Source: Roseomonas sp. (GTDB taxonomy: Bacteria; Pseudomonadota; Alphaproteobacteria; Acetobacterales; Acetobacteraceae). Taken from it: DNA of 64,000 bases. Under the pieces are notes generated by a model. That model was not told the DNA's origin. It worked only from the letters and a program-made list of their open reading frames with translations, and did no database searches. The first letter of the stretch is position 1; the number at the start of each line of letters is the position of its first letter. Positions 8,882 to 29,652 of this stretch are shown piece after piece. The position numbers were made by a program, and so were the translations under genes. The stretch lies in contig JBPCSO010000080.1 in assembly GCA_051007055.1 (NCBI GenBank), positions 2,702 to 66,701 of the forward strand, given 5' to 3'.

Positions 8882-10921
8882 GTGGCCACCATCGCCGCCC
8901 CCGACGCGCCCAACCCCGCGCTCGCCGCCCAGGCGGCTATCCTCGCCCGTCCGCTCGATGATCCCCGCCGCATGGCCAATGCCATCCGGGCATTGGCGAT
9001 TGACGCGGTGGAGCAAGCCAAGTCGGGCCATCCCGGCATGCCCATGGGCATGGCCGATGCCGCAACCGCGCTTTTTACCGGCTTCCTGAAATATGACGCT
9101 GCCGACCCGCGCTGGCCGGACAGGGACCGCTTTGTCCTTTCCGCCGGCCATGGGTCCATGCTGCTCTATGCCCTGCTCCATCTGACGGGGCATGATGGGA
9201 TGGGGGCGGATGAGCTGAGGCGCTTCCGCCAGCTTCACTCCCCCGCCGCCGGCCATCCGGAATTCGGCGAACATCCGGCGATTGAAACCACCACCGGCCC
9301 GCTCGGCCAGGGGATTTCGACAGCCGTCGGTATGGCCATGGCGGAACGCATGATGGCGGCACGCTTTGGTACTTCCTTGGTGGATCACCGCACCTGGGTC
9401 ATCGCTTCCGATGGAGACCTTCAGGAAGGCATCGCGCATGAAGCCGCTGCCCTTGCCGGCCATTACGGGCTTTCCAAGCTGACGGTGCTTTGGGACGACA
9501 ACCACATCTCAATTGATGGCGACACCGCGCTGTCATTCTCTGAAGATGTGCTGAAGCGCTTCCAGGCTTATGGCTGGGCTGTGCGGCGCGTGGATGGGCA
9601 TGATGCGGGCGAATTGGCCGGCGCCATGTCCTGGGCCATGCGTAACCGCAAGCCCACGCTGATCGCCTGCCGGACCATCATCGGCCTTGGCGCGCCGACT
9701 AAGGCGGGCACGGCGGGCAGCCATGGCGCGCCTTTGGGCGCCGCTGAAGCTGCCGCTGCCAAACAGGCCTTGGGTTGGACCGCAGCGCCTTTTGAAGTGC
9801 CTGCGGATATCAAGGCGCTTTGGGAGGCTGCCGGGCGGCGCGGCGCGGGGGCGCGGCGTTCCTGGCTGAAGCGCATCGCCAAGCACCCGCAACGCGCCGA
9901 ATTCGAACGCGCCATGGCGGGCCGCCTGCCGGAAGCCTGGAATGAGGCGCTTTCCGCGCTCCGCACCCAAATCGCGGCTGATAAGCCGAAGTTGGCAACC
10001 CGTGTTTCCAGCCAGAAGGCGCTGGAAGCCCTGGTGCCATCCGTGCCGGAAATGGTTGGCGGTTCGGCGGATTTGACCGGTTCGAACAATACCAATGTGA
10101 AGGGCGTGCTGGCGATTACGCCGGGCAATTTCAGCGGTCGCTTTGTTCATTGGGGTGTGCGTGAACACGGCATGGCAGCCGCCATGAATGGCATGGCGCT
10201 GCATGGCGGCATAATTCCCTATAGCGGCACCTTCCTGGTATTCAGCGATTACCTGCGGCCCGCCGTGCGGCTGGCCGCGCTGATGCGCCAGCGCGTCATT
10301 CATGTGCTGACACATGATTCGATTGGCCTTGGCGAAGATGGACCGACGCACCAGCCGGTAGAACATATCGCTTCCTTCCGCGCCATGCCTAATGTGCATG
10401 TGTTCCGCCCAGCGGATGCGATGGAAACCGCCGAATGCTGGGAATTGGCGCTGCGCCGGGCCGATGGGCCATCCTTGCTCGCGCTGTCGCGCCAAAACCT
10501 GCCGACGCTCCGCACCGATACGGCAGAAAATCGCTCAGCCCGCGGTGGCTATGTGCTGGCGGAAGCCGATGGCGCGCGGCAGGCGACATTGATCGCAACC
10601 GGCAGCGAGGTCTCGCTCGCCATGACGGCGCGGGATACCTTGCAGGCCGCAGGTATTCCAACCGCCGTGGTGTCTTTGCCGTGCTGGGAGATCTTCGCCG
10701 CACAAGATGACGCCTATCGCGCCAGCGTGCTGGGCAGCGCGCCGCGCTTTGGCATTGAAGCCGCCATTGGCTTTGGCTGGGAACGCTGGCTTGGCGCCGA
10801 TGGCGTATTCATTGGCATGGCGGGCTTCGGCGCCTCGGCGCCCGCCGATGATTTGTTCAAGCATTTCGGCATCACGCCGGATGCGGTGGTTGAAGCCGTA
10901 CGCAAGCGGCTTGGGGTTTGA
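8882..10921 (+). CDS. tkt: Transketolase
   Basis: [35 protein letters not shown] and [16 protein letters not shown] motifs; GTG start is uncertain. Confidence 0.97.
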
Positions 10922-10950
10922 TTTCAGTTTCTTTGGGGAAGGAAAAGATT

Positions 10951-11967
10951 ATGGCCGTCAAGGTTGCCATCAATGGGTTCGGGCGCATCGGGCGCCTGGT
11001 GCTGCGCGCGATGATTGAAAGCAATCGCCGCGATGTGGAATGCGTCGCCATCAATGACCTCGGCAGCGTGGAAGCCAATGCGCATCTGTTCCGGTATGAC
11101 AGTGTGCATGGCCGCTTCCCCGGTGAGGTTGCTGTGGATGGCAACAAGATCATCATCACCGCCAATGGCCGCACCTATGCACCGATCACCGTGAGCGCCG
11201 AGCGTGACCCGACCAAGGTGCCCTTCCAAGGTGTTGATGTCGCCATGGAATGCACCGGCATTTTCACCAGCAAGGAAAAGGCCTCCGCGCTGATCACGGC
11301 AGGTGCGCGCAAGGTGGTGATTTCCGCCCCCGGCGATAATGCGGATGCGACCATTGTCTATGGCGTCAATCACAAGACGCTGACGAAAGACATGACGGTG
11401 ATTTCCAACGCGTCTTGCACCACCAATTGCCTGGCGCCCGTGGCCAAGGTGCTGCATGAGAATTTTGGTATTCTGCGCGGCTATATGGTGACGATCCACG
11501 CCTACACGGGCGATCAGAACACCGTGGATACGCTACATAAGGATCTGCACCGCGCCCGCGCGGCGGCGGTTTCCGCAATCCCGACCTCGACCGGTGCGGC
11601 CAAGGCCGTTGGCCTCGTGATGCCGGAATTGAAGGGCAAGCTAGATGGCACGGCCATTCGCATCCCAACGCCCAATGTATCGCTCGTGTCGCTCGATTTC
11701 GTGCCCGCCAAGGAAGGTGTGACGAAGGAGGCTGTGAATGCCGCGATGAAGGCGGCGGCTGAAGGCGAATTGAAGGGCATTCTGGGTTACAATACCGAAC
11801 CGCTGGTCAGCATTGATTTCAACCACAACCCGGCTTCTTCCACCTTTGATGCGACGCAGACGCAGGTGGTGGATGGCGGGCTGGTGCGCGTGCTGTCCTG
11901 GTATGACAATGAATGGGGTTTTTCGAACCGCATGAGCGATACTGCGGCCTTGTTCGGTTCACTTTGA
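10951..11967 (+). CDS. gap: Type I glyceraldehyde-3-phosphate dehydrogenase
   Basis: [18 protein letters not shown] and WYDNEWGFS motifs; ATG at 10951 after GGAAGGA. Confidence 0.98.
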
Positions 11968-12025
11968 ATTAGTTTTACGGGGCAGCGCGCCACGTGCTGC
12001 CCCACCACTGCCCGAGGGTTCCATC

Positions 12026-13213
12026 ATGGCTTTCAAGACAATTGATGCGCTTCCCCCCAAGGGTCAGCGCGTATTGCTGCGCGCAGATTTGAATGTGCCG
12101 GTCAAGGATGGCCGCATCACGGATAGCACCCGCATCGAACGGCTGTGCCCGACCATCGCGGAATTGGCGCAGAAGGGTGCGCGCGTTGTGGTACTGAGCC
12201 ATTTTGATCGGCCCAAAGGCAAGCGCGTGCCGGAAATGTCCTTGAAGCCCATGCGGGAAGCGCTGGCGGCGGCGCTGAACCGTCCCGTCGCTTGGTGCGA
12301 TGATTGCGTGGGTGAAGCCGCCGAAGCGGCTGTGGCAGCGCTGGCAGATGGCGGTGTGTTGCTGCTGGAAAACACGCGCTTTCATGCCGGTGAGGAAAAG
12401 AATGACCCCGCCATGGCGGCAGCGCTGGCCAAGCTCGGCGATGCTTTTGTGAATGATGCGTTTTCGGCAGCGCATCGCGCCCATGCCAGCACGGAAGGGG
12501 TGGCGCGCCTGCTGCCCGCCTATGCCGGGCGGTTGATGGAAGCGGAATTGAAGGCGCTGGATGCGGCGCTCGGCAATCCCGCACGGCCCGTTGTGGCCAT
12601 TGTGGGGGGTGCGAAGGTTTCGACCAAACTTGAATTGCTCGGCAATCTTTGCAACAAGGTGGATGTGTTGGTGATTGGCGGCGCCATGGCCAATACCTTC
12701 CTGGCGGCGCAGGGCCATGGAATGGGCAAATCCCTGCAAGAAGCCGAAATGCACGAAACCGCACGCCAGATCATGGAGCAGGCGAAGGCCGCGAAGTGCG
12801 AAATCCTGCTGCCGGGTGACCTGGTGGTGGCCGAGGAATTCCGCGCCAATCCGCCAACGCGCACCGTTGGCGTCAATGCCGTGCCGGCAACTATGATGGC
12901 TTTGGATGTCGGGCCGCAAAGCGTTGCCTCCTTGGAAGCGCGGCTCCGCACCGCTTCCACCCTGGTCTGGAATGGCCCGCTTGGCGCGTTCGAGACGGCA
13001 CCCTTTGATGCGGCGACAGTGGCGGCGGCGCAAACGGTTGCGGCGCTCACGCAATCCGGCGCGCTGAAATCCATCGCGGGCGGGGGTGATACCGTCGCCG
13101 CACTCCGCCATGCCGGCGTGCTGGAACGCATGAGCTATGTCTCGACCGCCGGCGGCGCCTTCCTGGAATGGCTGGAAGGCAAGGAATTGCCGGGGGTCGC
13201 TGCGCTGGGGTGA
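12026..13213 (+). CDS. pgk: Phosphoglycerate kinase
   Basis: [28 protein letters not shown] and [14 protein letters not shown] motifs. Confidence 0.98.
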
Positions 13214-13267
13214 TGGCCAAGGCCACGCAACGCGCCTCATTGCACCCATATGCGCGCCCAGCGGCGC

Positions 13268-14560
13268 CTAAGCTGCGTCGGCCCGAATGGCGATCAATGC
13301 GGTGATGGTGGCGCGGATATCGGCCTCGGCATGTTCGCTGGAAAGAAAAAAGCGCAGCCGCGCGGCCTTTTCAGCAACCGCCGGGTAGATGATGGGCTGC
13401 ACATTGATCCCGCGCGCGAAAAGTAACTGCGCGTAACGCGCCGCCGCGATTGAAGACCCTAATATCACCGGAATAATCGCATGGGCTCTGGCGCTGCCTG
13501 TATCAAACCCAGCCTCTCGCGCCAGCCCTAGGAAAAGCGCTGCATTGGCTTGCAGCCGCGCCACACGCTCTGGTTCCGCCTGCACTATGGCAAGGCTTTC
13601 CAAAGCCGCCGCCGCCAGCGCGGGTGCCAGACCAACAGAATAGACAAAGCCCGGCGCGGAATGGCGCAGCCATTCAATCAGGCTGGCATTACCGGCGATA
13701 TAACCACCGCAAGCCGACAGTGTTTTGGAAAGCGTGCCCATCCAGATATCAACCTCATTCGGGTCAATACCGAAATGCTCATGCAGGCCATGGCCGCGCG
13801 CGCCAACCACGCCAAGCGCATGCGCTTCATCCACCATCAGCCAGGCGTCATGGCGTCGCGCCATTTCAATGAAGCGGGGCAAGTCGGGGATATCGCCATC
13901 CATGGAATAATGGCCTTCAATCACCAAAAGCGCGCGCCGCGCACTGCGCCGCGCTTCGGCAAGCGCTGCCTCTGCCGCGCGCCAATCATTATGCGCGAAG
14001 GAAAGCCGCTTGGCGCCAGAAAGCCTGGCCCCTTCGGTGCAGGAATTATGAATGGCCGCGTCATGCACAATCAAATCGCGCGGCCCAAGCATATGCCCAA
14101 TCACCGTGACATTCGTGGCGTGGCCTGAAACAAAAACAAGCGCTGCCTGAGCCTGATAATGCGCGGCCAAAGCAGCTTCCAAAGCGCCATGCAGCGGCCT
14201 TTCGCCGGAAACCATGCGTGATGCTGAAGCGGAAACGCCATACTGGTCTATCGCCGCCTTGGCTGCCGCCTGCACGCGGGCGTCACCATTCAGGCCAAGG
14301 TAGTTGTAGGACCCGAAATTGATCACCTCCCGCCCGGCAATGACACTATGGGCAGAGGCTATCCCCTCATGCGCGCGGAAGAAGGGGTTTTCCAATTCAA
14401 GGCTGGCCGCGGCATCACGGATCAGCGCCATTTCACGCTGGCCCGGCAATTCACGAAAACCGCGCGGCGCTTCCGGTGCCGGCGCATCCTCTCGCCGGCG
14501 CGTCAGGCGGGCCAGCAGCGCCGCGCGCGCGGCAGCGGAAAGGCCAAAGCCGCTATTCAT
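13268..14560 (-). CDS. PLP-dependent alpha-oxoamine synthase (AONS/SPT class II aminotransferase fold; WcbT/RkpG-like)
   Basis: NFGSYNYLGL, HNS, VDEAH and GTLSK (PLP lysine) motifs; ATGA overlap with the PKS stop codon. Confidence 0.9.
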   Translation of the reverse strand: MNSGFGLSAAARAALLARLTRRREDAPAPEAPRGFRELPGQREMALIRDAAASLELENPFFRAHEGIASAHSVIAGREVINFGSYNYLGLNGDARVQAAAKAAIDQYGVSASASRMVSGERPLHGALEAALAAHYQAQAALVFVSGHATNVTVIGHMLGPRDLIVHDAAIHNSCTEGARLSGAKRLSFAHNDWRAAEAALAEARRSARRALLVIEGHYSMDGDIPDLPRFIEMARRHDAWLMVDEAHALGVVGARGHGLHEHFGIDPNEVDIWMGTLSKTLSACGGYIAGNASLIEWLRHSAPGFVYSVGLAPALAAAALESLAIVQAEPERVARLQANAALFLGLAREAGFDTGSARAHAIIPVILGSSIAAARYAQLLFARGINVQPIIYPAVAEKAARLRFFLSSEHAEADIRATITALIAIRADAA

Positions 14561-17500
14561 GGCGCTGCCGCAGGTTCATGGGTTTCCATCAGCGCTTCGA
14601 CCGTTGCGCCCTCGGTATCATCCTTGAACAGCACGCCCGCCACACGCTGCACCAATAACGCCAAGGTCAAATCCTCGGTCACCGCAGTTAACGGCACACT
14701 GATCCCAAGGCGGCGTTCCAAAGCCATGCGCAATTCAATGCCGCCAAGCGAATCAAGCCCAAGCCCAGGAAGTGGCTGATCCACGCGCACCGCTTCGGGC
14801 GGCAGGCGCAGGATGCGCGCCATTTCTTCCCGCGCGAGCGCCAGCAATTCCGCCCGCGCTGCCTCTGGCGCCATGGCCAAAAGCCGTGCGCGCAAAGCCG
14901 CGCCATCTGTTTCCTGCGATGCCATGCGCGTGCCCAGTGCCGCATAGGCGGGCTCGGCCAAAATCGGCAGCGCCGCCTGCATCCCGCCCCAATTCATGCG
15001 CGCCAGATGAATCACGGGCGCGCCAGCGCCGATCAGCACCGGAAGGGTGGCAAGGGCTTCCTGCGCGACGATAGGCTTGGCGCCGCTCAAGCGTTCAAGT
15101 TTTTCCGCGGCGGCAGCTTCGCGCGTCAGCACGCCAGCATCAGCGATTGGCCCCCACCCGACTGCAAGCGCGGGCTTGCCTTGCGCGTGGCGCCGCCGCG
15201 CCAAGCCTTCCAAGGCGGCATTGGCGGCGACGTAATTCGCCTGGCCCGGATTACCGAAGGCCGTGGTTGCTGAAGAAAACAGCAGGAACAAATGCAAGGG
15301 ATCATCAGCCGTCAGCGCTTCCAAAGCCTCGGCCACCGCAAGCTTTGGCGCCAGCACGCGCGCGAAGCTTGCGCCATCCTGCCGCGCCGCCGCGCCATCA
15401 GCGAAGGCCGCCGCCGCTTGCACCACACCGCGCAAGGGCGCGCCTTCAGTGCGGAGCGCGGCCAGAACGCCGCCGAGTGCCACGCGGTCCGTCGCATCAC
15501 AGGCATGGGCGCTGGCGCGTGCGCCAAGGGCGGCCAAAACGCGCAAGGCTGCATCCATGCCCGGTGTGGCCGCACCGCGACGGGACAGAAGGGCAATGCG
15601 CCTTGCCCCCACCGCCGCCAGCCATTTGGCGCATTCCAAGCCAAAGCCCTGTGTGCCGCCCAGCACCACATAGGCCCCAGCTTCATCCGGTTGCCAGGAC
15701 GCGGCGCTTTTCGCGCTTGGTTCGGGTGGCCTGATCACCAGCTTGCCGATATGGGAAGATGCCTGAAGCTGACGGAAAGCAGCTTCCGCTTCACGCGCCG
15801 GGAAGGCGCGATAGGGCAAGGGCGTCAGCGCGCCATCCGCCAGCCGCGCGGCAATATCGCGCAGCAATGCCTCAGCCAGTGCAGGCCGCGCGCGCGGTAG
15901 CGCATCCGCATCCACGGCGAAATAACTGATATTGCAGCGGAAGGCGCCAAGCCCTGCGCGCCGGCCCTCGGCGAAGTCGCGCTTGCCCAATTCAATGAAG
16001 CGCCCAAACGGGGTTAGCAACGCCAGGCTTCTTTCCATGGCAAGGCCGGCCAAGGAATTCAGCACCACCTCCACCCCATCCGGCCAGACAGCACGCAGCG
16101 CATCGGCAAAGCCAGCATCGCGGCTATCCAGCACCAAATTGGCACCAAGCTGGCGCAGAAAGGCGCGCTTTTCTGGGCTGCCGGCGGTAGCCGCCACAAG
16201 GGCGCCAGCCGCCTTGGCGATTTGTAGCGCGGCCAAACCAACGCCACCCGCCCCGCCATGAATCAACACCCGTTCACCTGGGCGTAGCCGGGCGAGGGTT
16301 TCCAGCGAATAGGCAGCCGTGATGAAGGCAACCGGGATGGTCGCCGCCGCTTCCGCGCTCATGCCCGGCGGCAAGGGCTGCAGCGCCTCGGCCCGCGTCA
16401 GCGCATGCGTCGCAAAGGCCGCTGGCGCAAAGCCAAAAACCTGCGCACCGGGGGCAAGCCCAACACCCGGCCCGACTTCTTCCACAATGCCGGCGCATTC
16501 CATGCCGAGGCTCGGCCCCGCAAAGCCATCCATCAGCATGTCTTCCGGCAGCAGCCCCTGCGCCCACATCACATCGCGGAAATTCAGCCCCGTCGCGCTC
16601 ACGCGCAGCCGTACCTCGCCCGGGCCGGGTTTGGGCAAGGCGCTGATGCCGCTCCAGCCGAGGCTCGCCAATTGCCCAGGCTGGCCAATAGCCAATTGTG
16701 CCGGAAAGGCGGGCGCTGCCACGGGCAAGCCAGACCGCAGGACCGGCGTGAAACGCCCGCGCGCGGTAAGGCTGATCTCCGGCGCGTCACCGTCCCATTC
16801 GGCCAGAATGCTGAGCGCGGCTGCCTCAGGCGCCAAGCCCTGCGCAATCATCACTCGGCGCGGCTTCAGCCCGGGCATTTCATTGGTGAGCACCCGGCCA
16901 AGCCCAATCAGCCCCGCCGCGCGGGCTTCCTCGGCCTCAGCGACCATCATCAGGCTCCGGGCCACGCCATCCGCCGCCGCTGCCAGCGCGGTCATGGCCG
17001 CCAGCGCCCTGGCCGCGTCCGCCATGCCCGTCAGAGCCAGCACATCTGCGCCGCGCAAGGCTTTCGGGGGCGGGATTTCGCCCAGGTGCAAGATGGCGGG
17101 CCGCTGACCCGGCGCGTGCCGCGCGGCCAAGGCTTCCGCCAAGGGCATGGTCTCGGCATCGGTAAAGATCACACTTGGCCCAGCGCCATCCCGGGCGACC
17201 TCCGTGGGCTTCACTGAGGGGTTCTGGCCAGAGATCAACAGTGCCGGCCAGGGGGCGGATTGCAGCGCCTGAACCTCCGCACCCTGCCAGACCGCGACAC
17301 CAAGCGCGGCGCGCCAAGCGGCGGCATCGGGCAGCGCGCCATCCGGATTATCCCGCCACCAGGCGGCGTCCTGCCCTAGCGTGAAGCCCCAAAGCGCCCC
17401 AGGCGCAGGTTCGGCCAGCAGCAGCACCGCGCCTGGCGCGGCCTGGGCAGTGAGCCCTTCCAGCAGCGCCACCCCATGCCGCCCTAGCGCCGCCGGCGCC

Positions 17501-20500
17501 AAGCCCAGGATCACATCGGCCTTGTCCGCCTGGGCAGCGGTGGCGTTCAGGCTTTCCCAGCCATCCCAGCGCATGGCCACAGCTTCCGGCATCGTACCCG
17601 CAAAGCCGGCCAGGGCCTCACCAATCGCCCGATACTGGATGCGCCGACCGCTTGCGCCAAGCAGCGCCAAGGCGCCACGCGTCAGAGCCCCGCCCGCACC
17701 AAGTTCCAATACCCTGAGCGGCCTATCCTGCGGCCAAGACCCCGCCAAAGCACCAAGCCCAGCCAAGATTGGTTGAGCCAAACCCTGCATCGCCCCACCC
17801 ATGGCGGGCGGCGGTGGCGCCACAAGCGCCTCACCACGCAAGGCCGGGATCACTTGCTCGCCCGCCCGCGCCAGCCACGCCAGATCAAGCGCAAGCCCTG
17901 GTTGTTCCGCCAGCACAGCGCGCCAGATCGCTTCGGGCGGCGGCAGGGGCTGGTCTTCAATAATGCGCCAACCCTCAGCCAGGGGTTCCGCAGCGCCGGC
18001 CAGCGCCAGCATGCGCCATAGCGCAGCGCGATAGGGGCTTGGCGGCGCCGCGTTATCGCGCAGCGCCGGCAGCGCCAGGGCAGCCAGAAAGGCTTCCAAC
18101 AGCAGCGCGGCCTCGCTCAATGGTGCGGTCTGATCCTGCTTCAGAATTGCTGCAATGATGGGCTCAAGATCAAGCGATGCGGGCGCGCCGTGCAGCGGCA
18201 GGCTCGGCACCGGGTCAAGCCGGAAAGCCAAGTTTTCCAGCTTTTCCCGCCCTGGGCGCGGGACGCGCTGAAACCAGATATCCTCGATCCTGGCCACCAT
18301 GGCGCCAGCGGCATCGCGCAGCGTCAGGCTGGCGGCGAAAAGCCTGGCGCCGCGCCGACCGGGGGTGATTTCGGCGGAAGCGATGGGGGCCGCATCGCGC
18401 CGGGCGCAAAGCCGGCCAATGCGCACGGGAATAATCGCCTCATCAGCGCCCAAGCCTTGCCCGAGCATCAGGGCGAAAAGCCCCTGCAAGGCGCCATCCA
18501 GCAGGGCGGGGTGGAGCATGAAGCCGGCATGATCCGGCGCGGCTTCCGGCAGGCGCAGCCGCGCAAGTGCCACCCCGGCGGCGCCATCCACCTCGACCTG
18601 CTCCAGACTTTGAAAGGCCGGGCCGTAATCAAGGCCATGGCGCGCGGCGAAGGCCAAAACCTCGGCCCCCGGCACCTTCCGTGTCTTGGTCAGCGCGCAT
18701 GCCGGCGCGGCAGGCAGGCGCAGCAGGGCGGCCAGCCTTGCGCGGGCACAAAGGGCGAAATCATCCTCGGCCAGGCGCGGGCGGGCTTCCAGGGTGAAGC
18801 CGCCTTCGCCATCCGCCGCGAAGCGCAATTCCGCCATGCTGTCCTTGGCGAGCGAAACGGGGCGGAGAATGGCAAGATCACTGACTTCCAGAACCGGCGC
18901 ATCCGGATGGAAAAGCGCCGCGGCGGCCAAGGCGGCTTCGGCCATGGCGGCGGCGGGCAGCACGGCATCACCAAACAGCCTGTGATCGCCAAGCCAGGGC
19001 ATGGCGGTGGTATCCAGCCATTGCGTCCAGAGCCCAGGCACCGCGCCGCGCCGGAAACCCAGCAATGGATGATCCTGCGCCAAATCAGTCAGCCGCGCGC
19101 TTTCCACCGTGCGCTGGAACCAGATGGATCGGCGCGCAAACGGCGTGCGCGGCAGTGCTTTACGCTCGGCCACGCCCCGAAAGCCAGGGGCTGAACGCGG
19201 ATCAGCACCTGCGGCAATGGCGCGATCCGCAATGAGCGGAAAGGGATCGCCCGGCGGATCTTGGCGCTTCAGGCTGGAAAGTATTGCCGCTTCCACGGCT
19301 TCGGCGCGCAGCGTCTCTCGCAGATAATTCTGCAAAACCGGCGCAGGGCCGATTTCCAGGAAAAGCCGCGCACCCTGCCGCGCCGCTTCTGCCACCGCGT
19401 CCTGAAAACACACGGGTTCGCGCAGATTGCGCCACCAATACTGGCCCCCTGCTTCCGCCCCTACCAAGGGCTTGCCAGTGACCGAGGAAATCATCGGGCA
19501 AGTCCCTGGCTGCGTGACCATGCCTGCCAGATCATCCAATAGCCCAGCCCGCACCTGGTCCATCGCCGCGCTATGGAAGGCGTAGTCCAGATCAAGCGGA
19601 ATCGCGACCAGCCGCGCCGCTTCCGCTGCCTGGCACAGCCGTGCAATCGCCATCGCCGGGCCCGCGATAGTGAGCGCCGCCGGCGCATTGATTGCTGCGA
19701 TTTCAAGCCCCGGGCCGCATTCTTCCAGCATTGGCGCAATGGCTTCCGGCGTTGCGCCAATCGCCGCCATGCGCCCTGTGCCGCGCGTGGCATGCTGATG
19801 GCGGCTGCGCGCCACAATCAGCGCCGCCGCCTGATCAAGCGAGAGTATCCCCGCCGCCTGTGCCGCCGCCACTTCGCCGACCGAATGGCCGATCACCACA
19901 TCAGGCGTGATGCCTTGTTCGGCCAGCGCCGCCAAAACACCGATCTGCACCGCGAAAAGCAAAGGCTGGGCAAGATCTGTCCCCGCAAGTTGCGCTTCGC
20001 TTATACCTGCCTTGATCAGCGCGGCGGGTGAAACGCCAAGCTGTGGCGCCAGCGCGGCATCGGCGGCGAGTACACCACGGCGAAAGGCGGATGAAGCGCG
20101 AAAGGCTTCCCGCGCCATGCCCAAATGCTGGGCGCCATTACCGCTGAAGACAAATGCAGTGCCGCCGCTGACCGCGACCCCTTGCGCCGCACTCGTCTCA
20201 CGCTCCCCTGCCCCCCAGGCAGCCAGGCGCTGGGCTAGCGCCGCGCCATCGGCCCCGCGTAGCACAAGCCGATGCGGCGCCAGGTCCCGATACCGCGCCT
20301 GACCGCGCGCGAGTGCCGCAGTGCGCGCGGCATCGGCGCCCGCCAGCGCATCGCGCCATGATGCCACCGCAAGCCTGAGCGCTTCGGCAGAGCGCGCCGA
20401 GAGAATAAGCGGCGGCGCGCCCTTGGCCGCCGCAGGGCGGAGCGTGCGCGGATTTGGCGCGCGGCCCAAAATGGCTGCGGCATTGGTGCCGCCAAAGCCG

Positions 20501-21777
20501 AAAGCATTGACGCCGATCACCGCATCATCAGCAACGAAAATGCTTTTTGTTGCACGTGGAACACTCAGATTGAGATCGGTGAAATCAATCGCCGGATTGG
20601 GGTTTGCAAAATGCAGCGCCGGCGGCACGAAACCCTGTTCCAGCATCAGCATGGCCTTGACCAAACCAGCCATGCCCGCGCCGGCTTCCAAATGGCCGAT
20701 ATTCGCCTTGGCGGAACCAATCGGCAGTGGCGCGCTGCGATGGCGCGCTATCGCTTGCCCGATCGCCCAGGCCTCAGCCGGGTCACCCGCCTGGGTGCCG
20801 GTGCCATGCGCTTCAAACGCCAGAAAGCGATCCGGCTGCACCGCGGCTTTGTCCATCAGGCCCGCCAGCAATGTCGCCTGCGCATCGCGATTGGGCAGCG
20901 AAATGCCAATGGTGCGCCCGGCTGTATTGGTGCCGGTGCCAAGCAACAGGGCGCGGATTGGCTCCCCAGCGGCCTTGGCATCAGCAAGGCGGCGCAGAAT
21001 GACAACGCCCACACCTTCCGCGCGCACATAGCCATCCGCCGCCGCATCAAACACCTGGCAGCGTCCGCGTGCGGAGAGCATGCCCGCGCGGGAAAAACCG
21101 ATAAAGGCATAGGGCGAGAGCAGCAGATTGACACCCCCCACCACCGCGGCTTCCAAACCCGGATCATACGCCAAGGCGCGCGCGGCCAGATGCAGCGCGA
21201 CAAGGGAAGACGAGCAGGCAGTATCAATCGTCTGCGCACCGCCGCGCAAATCAAACACATGGCCAATGCGGTTGGACAGGATGGAAAGCGCATTGCCGGT
21301 CATGTGAAAACGATCGGCAGCCGCGGGATCATCCAAGCGCAGCTCAGCGAAATCCGTGGAAGACCCGCCGATGAAGACCGCGATATTGCGCCCAGCCAAG
21401 GCTTCCGGCCTCAGCCCCGCATCTTCAAAGGCATCGCGCGTTACTTCCAGTAGAAGGCGCTGCTGAGGATCGGCTTCCGCAACCTCACGCGGGGAAAGGC
21501 CGAAGGCTTCCGCGTCAAAGCCTTTGATATCGCCAATTGTGCCGGCAGCGAAACTATAACTCCGCCCCGCTTCGCCTGGGCGCGGATGATGCCAGCGCGC
21601 CTTTTCGAACCGGTCATCGGGCACTTCCGTCACCGCATCCACGCCTTGGCGCAGCACATCGGCAAAGCGCGCAAGATCAGGCGCACCAGGCAGCCTGGCC
21701 GCCGCCCCGATAATGGCAATCGGCTCCGGCGCAGTGGCTTTCGGGCGATAGGGGGCGCGGCGCATGGGTTCAGCCAC
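14557..21777 (-). CDS. Highly reducing type I polyketide synthase, KS-AT-DH-(degenerate MT)-ER-KR-ACP (WcbR/RkpA-like)
   Basis: KS: DTACSSS, HGTGT, HLEAG. AT: GHSVG, YAFH. DH: HRLFGDAVLP. MT remnant: VLELGAG. ER: HGGAGGVG. KR: GGTQGFG, ANYVAAN. ACP: GLDSLG. No TE domain. Start is GTG 21777 (overlapping the upstream stop) or ATG 21765. Confidence 0.93.
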   Translation of the reverse strand: MAEPMRRAPYRPKATAPEPIAIIGAAARLPGAPDLARFADVLRQGVDAVTEVPDDRFEKARWHHPRPGEAGRSYSFAAGTIGDIKGFDAEAFGLSPREVAEADPQQRLLLEVTRDAFEDAGLRPEALAGRNIAVFIGGSSTDFAELRLDDPAAADRFHMTGNALSILSNRIGHVFDLRGGAQTIDTACSSSLVALHLAARALAYDPGLEAAVVGGVNLLLSPYAFIGFSRAGMLSARGRCQVFDAAADGYVRAEGVGVVILRRLADAKAAGEPIRALLLGTGTNTAGRTIGISLPNRDAQATLLAGLMDKAAVQPDRFLAFEAHGTGTQAGDPAEAWAIGQAIARHRSAPLPIGSAKANIGHLEAGAGMAGLVKAMLMLEQGFVPPALHFANPNPAIDFTDLNLSVPRATKSIFVADDAVIGVNAFGFGGTNAAAILGRAPNPRTLRPAAAKGAPPLILSARSAEALRLAVASWRDALAGADAARTAALARGQARYRDLAPHRLVLRGADGAALAQRLAAWGAGERETSAAQGVAVSGGTAFVFSGNGAQHLGMAREAFRASSAFRRGVLAADAALAPQLGVSPAALIKAGISEAQLAGTDLAQPLLFAVQIGVLAALAEQGITPDVVIGHSVGEVAAAQAAGILSLDQAAALIVARSRHQHATRGTGRMAAIGATPEAIAPMLEECGPGLEIAAINAPAALTIAGPAMAIARLCQAAEAARLVAIPLDLDYAFHSAAMDQVRAGLLDDLAGMVTQPGTCPMISSVTGKPLVGAEAGGQYWWRNLREPVCFQDAVAEAARQGARLFLEIGPAPVLQNYLRETLRAEAVEAAILSSLKRQDPPGDPFPLIADRAIAAGADPRSAPGFRGVAERKALPRTPFARRSIWFQRTVESARLTDLAQDHPLLGFRRGAVPGLWTQWLDTTAMPWLGDHRLFGDAVLPAAAMAEAALAAAALFHPDAPVLEVSDLAILRPVSLAKDSMAELRFAADGEGGFTLEARPRLAEDDFALCARARLAALLRLPAAPACALTKTRKVPGAEVLAFAARHGLDYGPAFQSLEQVEVDGAAGVALARLRLPEAAPDHAGFMLHPALLDGALQGLFALMLGQGLGADEAIIPVRIGRLCARRDAAPIASAEITPGRRGARLFAASLTLRDAAGAMVARIEDIWFQRVPRPGREKLENLAFRLDPVPSLPLHGAPASLDLEPIIAAILKQDQTAPLSEAALLLEAFLAALALPALRDNAAPPSPYRAALWRMLALAGAAEPLAEGWRIIEDQPLPPPEAIWRAVLAEQPGLALDLAWLARAGEQVIPALRGEALVAPPPPAMGGAMQGLAQPILAGLGALAGSWPQDRPLRVLELGAGGALTRGALALLGASGRRIQYRAIGEALAGFAGTMPEAVAMRWDGWESLNATAAQADKADVILGLAPAALGRHGVALLEGLTAQAAPGAVLLLAEPAPGALWGFTLGQDAAWWRDNPDGALPDAAAWRAALGVAVWQGAEVQALQSAPWPALLISGQNPSVKPTEVARDGAGPSVIFTDAETMPLAEALAARHAPGQRPAILHLGEIPPPKALRGADVLALTGMADAARALAAMTALAAAADGVARSLMMVAEAEEARAAGLIGLGRVLTNEMPGLKPRRVMIAQGLAPEAAALSILAEWDGDAPEISLTARGRFTPVLRSGLPVAAPAFPAQLAIGQPGQLASLGWSGISALPKPGPGEVRLRVSATGLNFRDVMWAQGLLPEDMLMDGFAGPSLGMECAGIVEEVGPGVGLAPGAQVFGFAPAAFATHALTRAEALQPLPPGMSAEAAATIPVAFITAAYSLETLARLRPGERVLIHGGAGGVGLAALQIAKAAGALVAATAGSPEKRAFLRQLGANLVLDSRDAGFADALRAVWPDGVEVVLNSLAGLAMERSLALLTPFGRFIELGKRDFAEGRRAGLGAFRCNISYFAVDADALPRARPALAEALLRDIAARLADGALTPLPYRAFPAREAEAAFRQLQASSHIGKLVIRPPEPSAKSAASWQPDEAGAYVVLGGTQGFGLECAKWLAAVGARRIALLSRRGAATPGMDAALRVLAALGARASAHACDATDRVALGGVLAALRTEGAPLRGVVQAAAAFADGAAARQDGASFARVLAPKLAVAEALEALTADDPLHLFLLFSSATTAFGNPGQANYVAANAALEGLARRRHAQGKPALAVGWGPIADAGVLTREAAAAEKLERLSGAKPIVAQEALATLPVLIGAGAPVIHLARMNWGGMQAALPILAEPAYAALGTRMASQETDGAALRARLLAMAPEAARAELLALAREEMARILRLPPEAVRVDQPLPGLGLDSLGGIELRMALERRLGISVPLTAVTEDLTLALLVQRVAGVLFKDDTEGATVEALMETHEPAAAP

Positions 21778-23077
21778 GCGGCAGGCTTTGCGGCGTGAGC
21801 GCCGCCGGCACACCCCGATCAGCATGGGCAAGGGCCTGATCGGCCAAAGCGCGCGGTGCGGCGCGGGCGCAAGCTTCCAGCCAGGGGTCCACCCGCGCGA
21901 AATGGTCTTCCCAGCTTGGCACCGCCCAGGCGGAAAGCCGCGCCATTTGCGCCTGCCTCATGGGGCTTTCTGATGGTGCGTAATCCAGGATCAGGCGACG
22001 CCAGCCTGGGCCATCCAGCGGGTCCAGATATTCCGGCACAGCGCCACCTACCTCACGCAGGGCGGGCAAATCCGAACAGATCGCGGGCAAGCCAAGCGCC
22101 AGCGCCTCTGCAAGCGGCAGCCCGTAGCCTTCCGCGAAGGATGGGAACAGCAGCGCCCTGGCCCCTTGCAGCAAGCCCGCTACGGCCGCATCCGGCAGGC
22201 CCGCATATTCCACCACCTTGCCGGAAAGCGCCGGGCAGCGTTCCAACATGTCAAGGATATTCTCATTCTCCCAGCCGCGCCGGCCGATCAGGATGAGCTG
22301 CGGCGCGGCATCACCCATGGTTTCGGCCAAATCACGCCAAATATGCAAAAGCAGCAGGTGATTTTTGCGCGGTTCAATGGTGCCGAGGCAAATGAAGTAA
22401 CGCCCTGCTGGGCGCGGATAGCCGACATCAGGCGCCACGGGGTCAATGCCAAGCGGCGCGGGCAATACGGGGATCGGACCGCGCGTGCCTTCATGCGCCA
22501 GATAGGGCGCCAAGCTTGCCGCGGTGGCGGCGGAATTGACGATGATGCCATCCGCCAAACTCGTGAAGGTCTCAAGCCGGCTGAGATGCTGCCGGGTGCT
22601 GCGCGGCGGGGCATATTCCGGATGGGTGATCGGGATCAGATCATGCACCAGAGGAATGAAGCGGGCGCCTTGGCGCTTCAGCGCCAGAATGGCGCCAGGC
22701 CGATCCGCCCCGCGATGGGACACCAGTAGGTGCAGCACGGGTTCGCGGGCCGCCAGCGCCTCGCGCAATGCGCCGCGACCCAGCCCGAGCCATTGCCGAA
22801 GCTGCGCTTGCCGCGCGCGCCGCCGTGCCTCTGCCCACGCAGTGTACGCCCCCGCGGCGCCCAGCCAAAGCGTTTGAAGTGCCGCGAGCAGCGCCGCCAC
22901 AAGCCCCTGCGGCAGCGCCACCGGGGGCCGGAAAGGCCCGCTCATCACAAACGTCACGCGCGCGGGGTCCCGGGCGAGAAAATGGCGCGCATAGGCGTGC
23001 TCCACGCGATCAATACCAGTCGGCACAGGGCGCCCCGTGCCGGAAATCAGTCGCGAAATATCGAGCAAAATGTGCAA
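21770..23077 (-). CDS. Family 4 (GT-B) glycosyltransferase
   Basis: LDISRL..TGIDRVE.AY, LVHDLIP, GTIEPRKNH and PSFAEGYGLPLAEA motifs. Start TTG 23077 (AAGG upstream) is preferred; the ORF-track start at 23158 is a TTG next to a TATAAT box. Confidence 0.88.
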   Translation of the reverse strand: MHILLDISRLISGTGRPVPTGIDRVEHAYARHFLARDPARVTFVMSGPFRPPVALPQGLVAALLAALQTLWLGAAGAYTAWAEARRRARQAQLRQWLGLGRGALREALAAREPVLHLLVSHRGADRPGAILALKRQGARFIPLVHDLIPITHPEYAPPRSTRQHLSRLETFTSLADGIIVNSAATAASLAPYLAHEGTRGPIPVLPAPLGIDPVAPDVGYPRPAGRYFICLGTIEPRKNHLLLLHIWRDLAETMGDAAPQLILIGRRGWENENILDMLERCPALSGKVVEYAGLPDAAVAGLLQGARALLFPSFAEGYGLPLAEALALGLPAICSDLPALREVGGAVPEYLDPLDGPGWRRLILDYAPSESPMRQAQMARLSAWAVPSWEDHFARVDPWLEACARAAPRALADQALAHADRGVPAALTPQSLPRG

Positions 23078-23146
23078 GCGCCCGCCTTTGGCTTCGCGGG
23101 CATTCTGACGCGCAAAACCTGCGCCGAGCCCGGTGGAGAGGAAGTA

Positions 23147-23175
23147 ATTATATGACAATACAGGAAAGTTTGAAA
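23147..23175 (-). promoter_or_regulatory. Possible sigma70 promoter of the GT4-PKS-AOS operon
   Basis: Perfect TATAAT at 23152-23147 (minus strand) in an AT-rich patch; weak -35 (TTTCAA) 17 bp upstream. Confidence 0.35.
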
Positions 23176-23266: not shown

Positions 23267-23698
23267 ATGAGCATCTGGAAACGCCCGGCGACGCCCGAAG
23301 CCATTGAAGCACGCATGGCCAATAGCCTGCCCGGCGCCTTCGGTATCCGTATCCTGGAAGTCGGCGCCGATTTCATCCGCGCCGAAATGCCGGTGGATCG
23401 GCGCCATGTGCAGCCCTATGGCATATTGCACGGCGGCGCTTCCGTGGTGCTGGCCGAGACACTTGGCAGCCTGGCCACCACCCTGACCCTGCCCGAGGGC
23501 CAGCAGGCCGTGGGGTTGGAGGTGAATGCCAACCATGTCTCCGCCGTGCCGGAGGGCGAGACTGTGACCGCGATCTGCCGCCCGCTTCATCTGGGCCGCC
23601 GCACCCAGGTATGGCAGACGGAAATCCACCGGCCCAATGGCAAGCTTGCCTGCGTGTCGCGCCTGACCACGGCAGTGCTGGACCGGAAGACATCATAA
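23267..23698 (+). CDS. Hotdog-fold thioesterase (PaaI/MenI/EntH family)
   Basis: QPYGILHGGASVVLAETLGS and GLEVNANHV motifs; AGGAG RBS. Confidence 0.92.
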   Translation: MSIWKRPATPEAIEARMANSLPGAFGIRILEVGADFIRAEMPVDRRHVQPYGILHGGASVVLAETLGSLATTLTLPEGQQAVGLEVNANHVSAVPEGETVTAICRPLHLGRRTQVWQTEIHRPNGKLACVSRLTTAVLDRKTS

Positions 23699-28728: not shown

Positions 28729-29652
28729 ATGGAAGCCATTGCGCGAAATCCGGAAGAAGCGCTGAAGCCGCGTCGCCAGATGCGGATCAAGCCGCTGAGT
28801 TTCAAACCCTTTCTGCCCGGCGATGCCTGGGGCGATATCATGGAACCGCGCCCCCTTGGCGGGCGTTTCCGCGCCATTCGCCGTATTATCAGCGCCCTGA
28901 TCTGGACACTGATCGCCATTCCGATCCAATCCGTGCTGATGCTGCTGCCAGGCCAGGCCAAGATCAGCTTTGGCTGCTTCTATCATCGGGTGCTCTGCTG
29001 GCTGATCGGGCTTAAGGTGCAGGTTGTAGGCAAGGTTTCTGACAAGCCGGCGACTCTGTTCCTGCCCAATCACTCATCATGGCTTGATATTCTGGTGTTG
29101 GGTTCGGTGCTGCGCGCCAGTTTCGTTTCCAAGTCGGAAGTGGGTGAATGGCCGGTGGTCGGCATCATCGCCAAATTCGGTCGCACGGTCTTTGTCAGCC
29201 GCAAGCGTAATTCCACCGTGCTGCGGGAAGCGGACACCATGCGCGAAAGGCTCCAGGCAGGTGATAGCCTGATCCTGTTTGCCGAGGGCACCAGCAATGA
29301 CGGCACACGGGTGCTGCCTTTCCGCTCAGCTTTCCTGGCGGCGGCGGCGGATGCCAAAGCGGTGCAGCCGGTGTCTTTAGTCTATGATCGCCTTGGCGGC
29401 TTGCCGGCCTGCCGGCGGGATAGGCCGCTTTTCGCCTGGTATGGCGATATGGATATCGCTTCCCATTTCTGGCGCATCGCGCGCCGGTCCGGGGCGCGGG
29501 CGACGGTACTGCTGCATGAACCCGCCGACCCGGCCACGCTGCCGGATCGTAAGGCCCTGACTGCGGCGGTCAGCGATGTGGTTGCCGCAGGTGCTGCCCA
29601 ATTGCGGCAAAATCGCCCCGCCACACCGCTTTTCCTGAATGCGTCGCACTAA
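28729..29652 (+). CDS. Lysophospholipid acyltransferase (PlsC/OlsA family)
   Basis: NHSSWLD (HX4D) and FAEGTS motifs. Confidence 0.9.
   Translation: MEAIARNPEEALKPRRQMRIKPLSFKPFLPGDAWGDIMEPRPLGGRFRAIRRIISALIWTLIAIPIQSVLMLLPGQAKISFGCFYHRVLCWLIGLKVQVVGKVSDKPATLFLPNHSSWLDILVLGSVLRASFVSKSEVGEWPVVGIIAKFGRTVFVSRKRNSTVLREADTMRERLQAGDSLILFAEGTSNDGTRVLPFRSAFLAAAADAKAVQPVSLVYDRLGGLPACRRDRPLFAWYGDMDIASHFWRIARRSGARATVLLHEPADPATLPDRKALTAAVSDVVAAGAAQLRQNRPATPLFLNASH

Follow-up and report, generated by a model that had tools for sequence, protein, structure and literature searches.

A polyketide synthase and alpha-oxoamine synthase operon detached from the kps genes in a Roseomonas genome: a probable lipid-and-primer arm of a Kps-type capsule system

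Introduction

Lipid modules that consist of a polyketide synthase (PKS) and an alpha-oxoamine synthase (AOS) have been known genetically since the 1990s from the rkp-1 and wcb loci, and biochemically since 2025 from the SgaAB system. For the rkp/wcb-type pairs, the proposed role is that of a lipid carrier or anchor (PMC3557214). PfSgaB was shown biochemically to be a serine-specific palmitoyltransferase and the partner of the iterative PKS PfSgaA, and the products of the two enzymes were C24, C26, and C28 sphinganines together with forms that were 154 Da heavier, which were assigned as phosphoglycerol sphingolipids (PMC12134224). A cblaster survey in the same study yielded 6,101 homologous clusters, of which Burkholderia accounted for 3,452, Sinorhizobium for 241, and Roseomonas for 28 (PMC12134224), and the pair is thus already on record for the latter genus. 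In the capsule systems of E. coli and Neisseria, KpsS and KpsC start on (lyso)phosphatidylglycerol (PMC7694667). In the literature searched, we found no link between SgaAB-type sphingolipids and capsule anchors. Here, we analyzed a three-gene operon for a glycosyltransferase (GT), a PKS, and an AOS, which is located at positions 13268-23077 of a 64,000-nucleotide stretch of DNA from Roseomonas sp. (GenBank assembly GCA_051007055.1, contig JBPCSO010000080.1, positions 2,702 to 66,701 of the forward strand; "the window" denotes this whole stretch).

The host is a freshwater Roseomonas-group genome of the Acetobacteraceae, and a locus with 99% identity is known from a lake metagenome-assembled genome. 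For the comparative analysis, 80 loci encoding AOS relatives were mapped by tblastn, and the AOS orthologue, KpsS/KpsC, and the GT were scored in a sample of 251 Acetobacteraceae genomes. Profile comparisons made use of Pfam domains and of NCBIfam equivalog models with their curated cut-offs. The results make it probable that the operon is the lipid-and-primer arm of the Kps-type capsule system of the host, an ABC-transporter-dependent, group-2-like system, and that it was separated from the export genes by rearrangement.

Results

Gene content and coupling of the operon

The GT, PKS, and AOS genes form one translationally coupled operon on the minus strand. The GTG start codon of the PKS gene at 21777 overlaps the stop codon of the GT gene (GTGGCTGA), with an ATG at 21765 as an alternative PKS start, and the ATG of the AOS gene overlaps the PKS stop codon as ATGA. 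The operon is convergent with pgk (12026-13213, plus strand), from which it is separated by 54 bp. A tblastn search revealed no kps genes, LtaS/sulfatase-family genes, or locus-type short-chain dehydrogenase/reductase (SDR) genes on the 67.7-kb contig, and matches were found on other contigs only. The original prediction had described the three genes, their coupling, domains, and motifs, the convergence with pgk, and the lack of capsule genes at the flanks, and this description was confirmed in full, including all coordinates.

The AOS gene (13268-14560, minus strand) encodes a pyridoxal phosphate (PLP)-dependent protein of 430 aa, which was assigned to the WcbT/RkpG/SgaB type by its match to Aminotran_1_2 and by its homology to PfSgaB. 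Its identity to PfSgaB, for which Peters et al. 2025 give the sequence in their supplement, is 56% over 392 residues (E 2e-151), and the PLP lysine is K279 in a GTLSK motif. The best relatives in the PDB are bacterial serine palmitoyltransferases (SPTs; E 1e-68). The AOS stayed below the cut-offs of the SPT equivalog models (NF047599, 274/500 bits; NF047600, 304/640 bits; NF047603, 211/670 bits). It is predicted to be an off-loading enzyme that condenses an ACP-bound acyl chain with L-serine. The level of identity to PfSgaB supports the earlier proposal that an amino acid condenses with an ACP-bound long acyl chain and so releases it as a sphingoid-type lipid, which is the most likely course of the reaction.

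The highest NCBIfam score of the AOS was obtained with the bioF model, which could point to a housekeeping enzyme (BioF, Kbl, or 5-aminolevulinate (ALA) synthase) next to a PKS that is an unrelated fatty-acid or polyunsaturated-lipid synthase. However, this score was below the cut-off (TIGR00858, 338/426 bits), as were the scores for Kbl (NF005394, 318/460 bits), ALA synthase (TIGR01821, 237/339 bits), and the other models. Together with the ATGA overlap, the identity to PfSgaB, a PKS-AOS adjacency that is invariant in the 80 loci, and a separate ALA synthase gene on contig C72, these scores leave a housekeeping role with hardly any probability, and for practical purposes it can be regarded as excluded.

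The PKS gene (14557-21777, minus strand; open reading frame (ORF) 14557-21831) encodes a monomodular, fully reducing type I PKS of 2,406 aa with the domain order KS-AT-DH-psiMT-ER-KR-ACP, in which psiMT denotes a degenerate methyltransferase (MT). In the PKS, Pfam recognized KS, AT, PS-DH, ER (ADH_zinc_N), KR, and PP-binding domains but did not detect a thioesterase (TE). The motifs DTACSS (with C203), HGTGT, NIGH, GHSVG, YAFH, HxxxGxxxxP, GGAGGVG, GGTQGFG, YVAAN, and LDSL are intact. In the gap between residues 1200 and 1700, a degraded S-adenosylmethionine-binding motif, VLELGAGGA, was found, and the earlier description of this linker as a degenerate MT is therefore fair. Orthologues of the PKS, with identities of 37-96%, lie directly upstream of the AOS gene in all 80 loci. 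By sequence, the PKS is of the WcbR/RkpA/SgaA type and is presumed to work iteratively, building a long saturated acyl-ACP from malonyl units. The likeness of the pair to WcbR/WcbT and RkpA/RkpG, which had been noted before, was thus borne out.

No canonical SPT was found in the host genome, and the only other gene of the AOS family encodes an ALA synthase and lies beside bchI on contig C72. The operon is therefore the only route to sphingoid bases in this host. The ALA synthase gene is located directly upstream of the gene for a bchI-like Mg-chelatase subunit (C72:904-3365), and this pair suggests an aerobic anoxygenic phototrophic lifestyle, with a photosynthesis gene cluster in the genome.

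The capsule genes of the host and the locus in relatives

Intact kpsS, kpsC, kpsM, kpsT, kpsE, and kpsD genes are present on contig C74 of the host genome. The region C74:9611-17821 gave profile matches to PF05159 (twice), ABC2_membrane, ABC_tran, TIGR01010 (KpsE), and Poly_export, and the tetranucleotide profile of this contig fits the genome (r 0.993 versus a median of 0.996). In the host, the PKS and AOS genes are not adjacent to kps, because the operon lies on contig C80 and the kps genes lie on C74. An orthologue of the LtaS/sulfatase-family gene is present on contig C12 and is 60% identical to the copy in the Neoroseomonas-type locus L027.

The KpsS of the host (C74:9611-10873, L004) shares only 41-43% identity with its counterparts in congeners, though KpsT and KpsD reach 73-75%. 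It is closer (47-50%) to the KpsS proteins of the Roseomonas mucosa type, the orientation of which it shares. The host may contain a replaced or different type of KpsS that was acquired along with the rearrangement.

In the window's own clade, genes for an asparaginase and a thioesterase are followed by GT-PKS-AOS; pgk comes next in L006, the closest locus, and kps genes are absent within 10 kb of GT-PKS-AOS. In Neoroseomonas and several Roseomonas genomes, the AOS proteins of which are 75-77% identical, the left border between the thioesterase gene and GT-PKS-AOS is the same as in the window. Downstream of the AOS gene, these loci continue with genes for a formyltransferase-like protein, an LtaS/sulfatase-family protein, an SDR, KpsS, KpsC, KpsM, KpsT, KpsE, and KpsD. 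The order is GT-PKS-AOS-KpsS-KpsC-KpsMTED in the R. mucosa group and SDR-KpsS-PKS-AOS-GT-KpsM-KpsE, followed by heptose genes, in Sphingomonas, and in many Betaproteobacteria PKS-AOS is followed by KpsT/E/D or KpsE/M/T. Altogether, the gene order GT-PKS-AOS was observed in about 31 of the surveyed genomes. Because GT-PKS-AOS is continuous with kps genes in relatives, the trio in the window can be regarded as a fragment of a conserved supercluster. Simple excision as the model for the separation was rejected, as pgk-gap-tkt was not found beyond kpsD in congeners with a joined locus (within 30 kb in G147 and 11 kb in G234).

These findings do not support the earlier view of a minimal module that is perhaps independent of capsule export, since an intact kps set is present on C74 and the same GT-PKS-AOS unit abuts kps in relatives. 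The original prediction had itself named in advance the presence of the remaining wcb/rkp-type genes elsewhere in the genome as a result that would speak against it; the kps genes were looked for in the genome and were found on C74.

Two congeners showed partial loss. In G005 (L092, C34 8985-10605), the asparaginase, thioesterase, and GT genes are retained, the latter with 68% identity, and the PKS gene after the GT gene is reduced to a remnant of 52 codons (codons 57-108). No KpsS/KpsC was found in G005, in which a second PKS-AOS pair with 50% identity is encoded elsewhere (L091). The loss of the capsule and that of its lipid module seem to have gone together in this congener. In G234 (L100, C3 3056-3727), kpsS is truncated and contains an in-frame TAA, and no match to kpsC was obtained, with PKS, AOS, and KpsMTED retained; the capsule primer unit of this congener appears to be decaying.

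The formyltransferase-like gene (Formyl_trans_N, 244 aa; L027 11386-12120) directly follows the AOS gene in the Neoroseomonas-type loci, and weaker homologues occur after the AOS gene in loci of other Acetobacteraceae and of Burkholderiales. The homologue in the host, with 42% identity, is located on contig C23, where it neighbors genes for a DUF6311 protein and an SDR. One possible function of this gene is to N-formylate or N-acylate the amino lipid.

Co-occurrence of kps genes and sphingoid-base synthesis

Among the 251 genomes, 56 contained both an AOS orthologue and KpsS/C, 11 contained only the AOS, 21 contained only KpsS/C, and 163 contained neither. The resulting odds ratio for the association of AOS and kps is 39.5, not corrected for phylogeny. 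In 42 of the 44 genomes that have both genes on one contig, AOS and kpsS are less than 15 kb apart. A split arrangement was found in the host, in G187 (180 kb), and in G014 (1.2 Mb).

If a sphingoid lipid is the anchor, kps-containing genomes that lack PKS-AOS would be expected to obtain long-chain bases in another way. A canonical SPT was found in 16 of these 21 genomes; of the other five, three are incomplete assemblies. For comparison, a canonical SPT was present in 11 of 99 tested genomes that lack both kps and PKS-AOS, and PKS-AOS was present in 11 of 174 genomes without kps. Taken together, a sphingoid-base synthase, either PKS-AOS or a canonical SPT, is encoded in 72 of 77 kps-containing genomes versus about 17% of those without kps. 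The possibility that the strong matches to the SPT models were Kbl proteins was ruled out, as the four members sampled passed NF047599 with 614-643 bits (cut-off 500) and each of the genes adjoins a gene for a fatty acyl-AMP ligase. The PKS-AOS and SPT routes occur in different parts of the family, so that the phylogenetic confound is softened, not removed. The co-occurrence of kps genes with a sphingoid-base synthase fits a sphingoid-phosphoglycerol capsule anchor.

The glycosyltransferase and the KpsS/KpsC unit

The GT gene (21770-23077, minus strand) encodes a GT4-family, GT-B, retaining-type glycosyltransferase of 435 aa, which was classified by Pfam, by its EX7E motif, and by its orthologues. 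The C-terminal half matched Glycos_transf_1 (E 1.7e-13), Glyco_trans_1_4, and GT4-conflict, and the EX7E motif is EGYGLPLAE (aa 316-324); the GT-B C-terminal nucleotide-sugar domain and the EX7E motif expected of CAZy family GT4 are both present. Full-length orthologues with identities of 44-61% are encoded beside kpsS or upstream of the PKS gene in 64 of 69 kps-containing genomes. An orthologue was found in 51 of the 56 genomes with both AOS and kps, the five exceptions being fragmented assemblies (260-970 contigs), and in 13 of 13 tested genomes with kps and without AOS, mostly 1-2 kb from kpsS in the order KpsC-KpsS-GT (L093). Only one of the 11 genomes with AOS and without kps, congener G005, encodes the GT. 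Four genomes with an AOS (G110, G150, G162, and G210) carry the GT gene beside kpsS, 14-16 kb away from the AOS gene.

Plasmids gave a similar picture. In the kps locus of an Acidisoma plasmid (NZ_CP126995; L096, locus 8901-18883), the genes encode KpsD, T, M, E, an "LTA synthase family" protein, KpsC, KpsS, two GTs, a sterol-desaturase-family protein, an AOS, and an SDR. No PKS was found in this locus, and the acyl chain for its capsule-linked long-chain-base module presumably comes from ordinary fatty acid synthesis. A Novosphingobium plasmid has the order kdsA, kpsF, kdsB, KpsC, GT. Plasmid homologues of the GT below about 50% identity occur in mixed contexts, and the kps association is limited to the tier of orthologues. 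At that level, the association of the GT with KpsS/KpsC is conserved in Acetobacteraceae and Sphingomonadaceae.

The presence of the GT in 13 of 13 tested kps-containing genomes without PKS-AOS and its absence from 10 of 11 PKS-AOS genomes without kps show to which unit it belongs. As judged from its sequence and these distributions, the GT4 protein is predicted to be a capsule-system enzyme of the KpsS/KpsC primer unit and not a member of the lipid pathway. The earlier proposal that the GT glycosylates the PKS product is not supported as stated, because the GT follows kps and not PKS-AOS (13/13 versus 1/11 genomes).

The same results bear on a self-contained glycosphingolipid pathway of three genes, in which the aminolipid from PKS and AOS would be glycosylated by the GT4 enzyme without any dependence on capsule export. 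The translational coupling of the three genes agrees with such a pathway, as does the fact that the trio, the order of which is the same in about 31 genomes, stayed together after the split from kps. The best PDB matches of the GT are weak but are lipid-acceptor GT4 enzymes (PimA, E 5e-6); however, the PimA match spans the generic C-terminal nucleotide-sugar domain only. Moreover, the GT gene is present, mostly close to kpsS, in all 13 tested kps-containing genomes without PKS-AOS, it is distant from AOS in the four genomes named above, and the host genome contains a full kps set. We therefore consider a self-contained pathway to be improbable. Sequence searches against solved structures also gave weak C-terminal matches of the GT to MshA-type enzymes (E about 5e-6), and an assignment of function from PDB matches was dropped as uninformative.

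Promoter-like site and neighboring genes

The ORF of the GT spans 21770-23158, with TTG at 23158 as the longer start; the likely start is TTG at 23077, and orthologues align from residues 1-4 of the 435-aa version. A consensus scan detected a promoter-like site, TTCAAA-16-TATAAT, at 23147-23174 (minus strand), which has 10/12 matches and precedes the GT start by about 70 nt. It was the sole strong site of this kind upstream of the operon, and its location inside the longer ORF favors the start at 23077.

The operon has a G+C content of 66.2%, whereas the kps region has 62.5% and the genome 61.3%. The higher value could reflect the amino-acid composition of the PKS, or incomplete amelioration in a lineage with more GC-rich relatives.

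Divergent from the GT gene lies a gene for a hotdog thioesterase of the PaaI/4HBT type (window 23267-23698, plus strand). Every Roseomonas and Neoroseomonas locus has it there (72-99% identity), and it is absent from the Sphingomonas and R. mucosa-type loci. It was considered as the missing TE of the PKS, for release or editing, and was rejected, because it is confined to the Roseomonas/Neoroseomonas group and persists in G005 despite the deletion of the PKS gene; it is probably a mere neighbor. A gene for a PlsC-type acyltransferase (window 28729-29652, plus strand) is located 5.6 kb upstream of the operon, ahead of miaB, and no link to the operon was seen.

Discussion

The likely function of the operon as the lipid-and-primer arm of the capsule system can be formulated as a sequence of six steps. 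The PKS, working iteratively, in the manner of a fatty acid synthase (FAS), and without a TE, would assemble a saturated, very-long-chain acyl group on its own ACP. The coupled AOS would then free the chain by decarboxylative Claisen condensation with L-serine, which would yield a very-long-chain 3-ketosphinganine. After reduction of the latter, a transferase of the LtaS/sulfatase family, the orthologue of which is encoded elsewhere in the genome, may add a phosphoglycerol head group. The resulting single-chain phosphoglycerol lipid would replace lyso-phosphatidylglycerol as the acceptor for the beta-Kdo linker (Kdo, 3-deoxy-D-manno-octulosonic acid) made by KpsS/KpsC. Sphinganine-1-phosphoglycerol has one hydrocarbon chain and a phosphatidylglycerol-type head group, like lyso-phosphatidylglycerol, and for this reason it could be a KpsS acceptor. 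The GT4 enzyme would most likely add the first non-Kdo sugar or sugars to the lipid-linked primer, and KpsMT and KpsED, encoded on contig C74, would export the product. We infer the chain length in the host, the third to fifth steps, and the anchor role, whereas gene content, coupling, homology, and co-occurrence were observed directly.

Two candidates related to the third step were considered and rejected. An NAD-epimerase-family gene (C74:7607-8620) was tried as the missing 3-keto reductase, but its product resembles a sugar-nucleotide enzyme, and the gene is not kept beside the module in relatives. A phosphonate head group was considered as the LtaS-like gene on contig C12 adjoins a gene with a "PEP_mutase" Pfam match; the closest NCBIfam model for this neighbor is methylisocitrate lyase, and the idea was therefore dropped.

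Several observations weigh against a capsule anchor. No clear orthologue of the locus-type 3-keto reductase (SgaC-type SDR) was found in the host genome, in which the best match to the SDRs of three relatives is 38-41% identical and lies on contig C38. The module is detached, with kps on a separate contig and with stretches of more than 16 kb and more than 42 kb at its two sides, and co-regulation is therefore not evident. KpsS/KpsC are lacking in 11 of the 67 genomes with an AOS. Three genera contribute two genomes apiece to this group, and a chromosome-scale contig carries the locus in two of these assemblies. The AOS-only genomes examined contain PKS-AOS-SDR without GT or kps, a stand-alone, SgaABC-like form that differs from the window operon in the presence of the SDR and the absence of the GT; the lipid can thus have a capsule-independent role. 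The 21 genomes with kps and without PKS-AOS are a further point, and all co-occurrence counts are raw counts without correction for phylogeny. For this organism, which is known from a metagenome-assembled genome, the anchor role is a prediction. Lastly, Peters et al. report free lipids and do not mention capsules (PMC12134224).

Part of this evidence would also be explained if the operon encoded a pathway for free very-long-chain sphingolipids as in PfSgaAB. In that case, the products would be membrane or secreted lipids, the link to kps would reflect shared envelope function or ancestry, and the GT would be a capsule enzyme that shares the transcript. The PfSgaAB products were found as free lipids, some Acetobacteraceae without kps have PKS-AOS-SDR alone, and in the host the operon is far from kps and is the only sphingoid-base route. 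However, a free-lipid pathway is difficult to reconcile with the distance of less than 15 kb between AOS and kpsS in 42 of 44 same-contig cases, with an odds ratio near 40, and with the apparent joint loss of PKS-AOS and kpsS/C in G005. In addition, rkp-1 mutants reportedly lose the K polysaccharide, as Kiss in 1997 and Muller in 2009 are said to have found. On balance, a free-lipid role is plausible but distinctly less probable, and we prefer the assignment of the operon to the capsule system.

A broader version of this proposal is put forward more tentatively and seems somewhat less probable than not. A sphingoid lipid, instead of lyso-phosphatidylglycerol, might be the base on which Acetobacteraceae build their Kps-type capsules and, if the idea is extended, on which rkp/wcb-type capsules are built in rhizobia, Burkholderia, and many other Proteobacteria. 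The phosphoglycerol-sphinganine made by PKS and AOS could then be what KpsS really takes as its acceptor, bases from canonical SPT would serve in lineages that lack the PKS, and the GT4 and LtaS-like proteins would be additional primer enzymes.

The operon represents a natural experiment, in which the module was cut from the export genes and the GT stayed with PKS-AOS. The comparison of split, joined, PKS-less, and kps-less relatives assigned the GT4 gene to the KpsS/KpsC primer unit, and it also revealed that Kps capsules in this family nearly always co-occur with sphingoid-base synthesis, a result that is general and not specific for the window. It makes testable a long-open question, namely which lipid the rkp/wcb-type capsules sit on, and cultivable, non-pathogenic strains of Roseomonas, Neoroseomonas, or Sphingomonas are suitable for this purpose. 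A sphingoid anchor, if true, would join the rkp-1/wcbR-T puzzle of the 1990s to the SgaAB sphingolipids of 2025.

Comparison with known systems

The window operon belongs to the rkp-1/wcb/Sga module and is not a new pathway; it is unusual only in its split from kps and in the lack of a recognizable keto-reductase. In rkp-1 of Sinorhizobium meliloti and S. fredii (rkpA, rkpG, rkpH, rkpI, and rkpJ) and in the capsular polysaccharide I (CPS-I) locus of Burkholderia (wcbO-wcbT), the PKS and AOS are tied to KpsS/KpsC, KpsMT, and KpsED, and relatives of the host carry the full set of neighbors with the SDR, the LtaS/sulfatase-family membrane protein, and KpsS. In contrast, the host has its PKS-AOS genes separated from every kps gene, lacks the SDR, and carries the LtaS-like gene on a third contig (C12). 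A further difference is that the GT4 gene and, in relatives, the formyltransferase-like gene are part of the conserved set of the host type.

Like the host, Pseudomonas fluorescens MYb115 encodes a TE-less, monomodular type I PKS of the iterative kind (PfSgaA) directly followed by an AOS (PfSgaB). Judged by the locus tags of MYb115, sgaC is set apart from sgaB by four genes. Of the features of SgaAB-type clusters, the TE-less KS-AT-DH-ER-KR-ACP PKS and the adjacent PfSgaB-like AOS are present in the window, and the cluster SDR (SgaC) is absent. The host differs from PfSgaABC in having no orthologue of the SgaC-type KDSR/SDR and in having a co-transcribed GT4 gene upstream. The PfSgaAB paper is silent on capsule genes, whereas the link to kps is the main feature of the host-type module. 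The fungal PKS and AOS pairs for fumonisin (Fum1/Fum8), sphingofungin, and myriocin likewise combine a TE-less reducing PKS with off-loading by a PLP-dependent AOS. However, they make eukaryotic secondary-metabolite toxins or inhibitors with the aid of tailoring enzymes, have no capsule or export context, and are evolutionarily distant.

The canonical SPT pathway of Sphingomonas, Caulobacter, and acetic acid bacteria, with its acyl-AMP ligase and ACP, uses the same PLP chemistry as the AOS. It differs in the acyl donor, which here would be the ACP of a dedicated PKS and not a FAS-derived acyl-ACP or acyl-CoA, and in the NF047599 scores, which are 614-643 bits for the SPTs of the acetic acid bacteria type and 274 bits for the host AOS. 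With the (lyso)phosphatidylglycerol-poly-Kdo pathway of E. coli group 2 and Neisseria (PMC7694667), the host shares KpsS, KpsC, KpsM, KpsT, KpsE, and KpsD. Those systems have no PKS/AOS and use a glycerolipid acceptor, whereas in the host and in the rkp/wcb-type loci a dedicated long-chain-base pathway is attached to the capsule genes.

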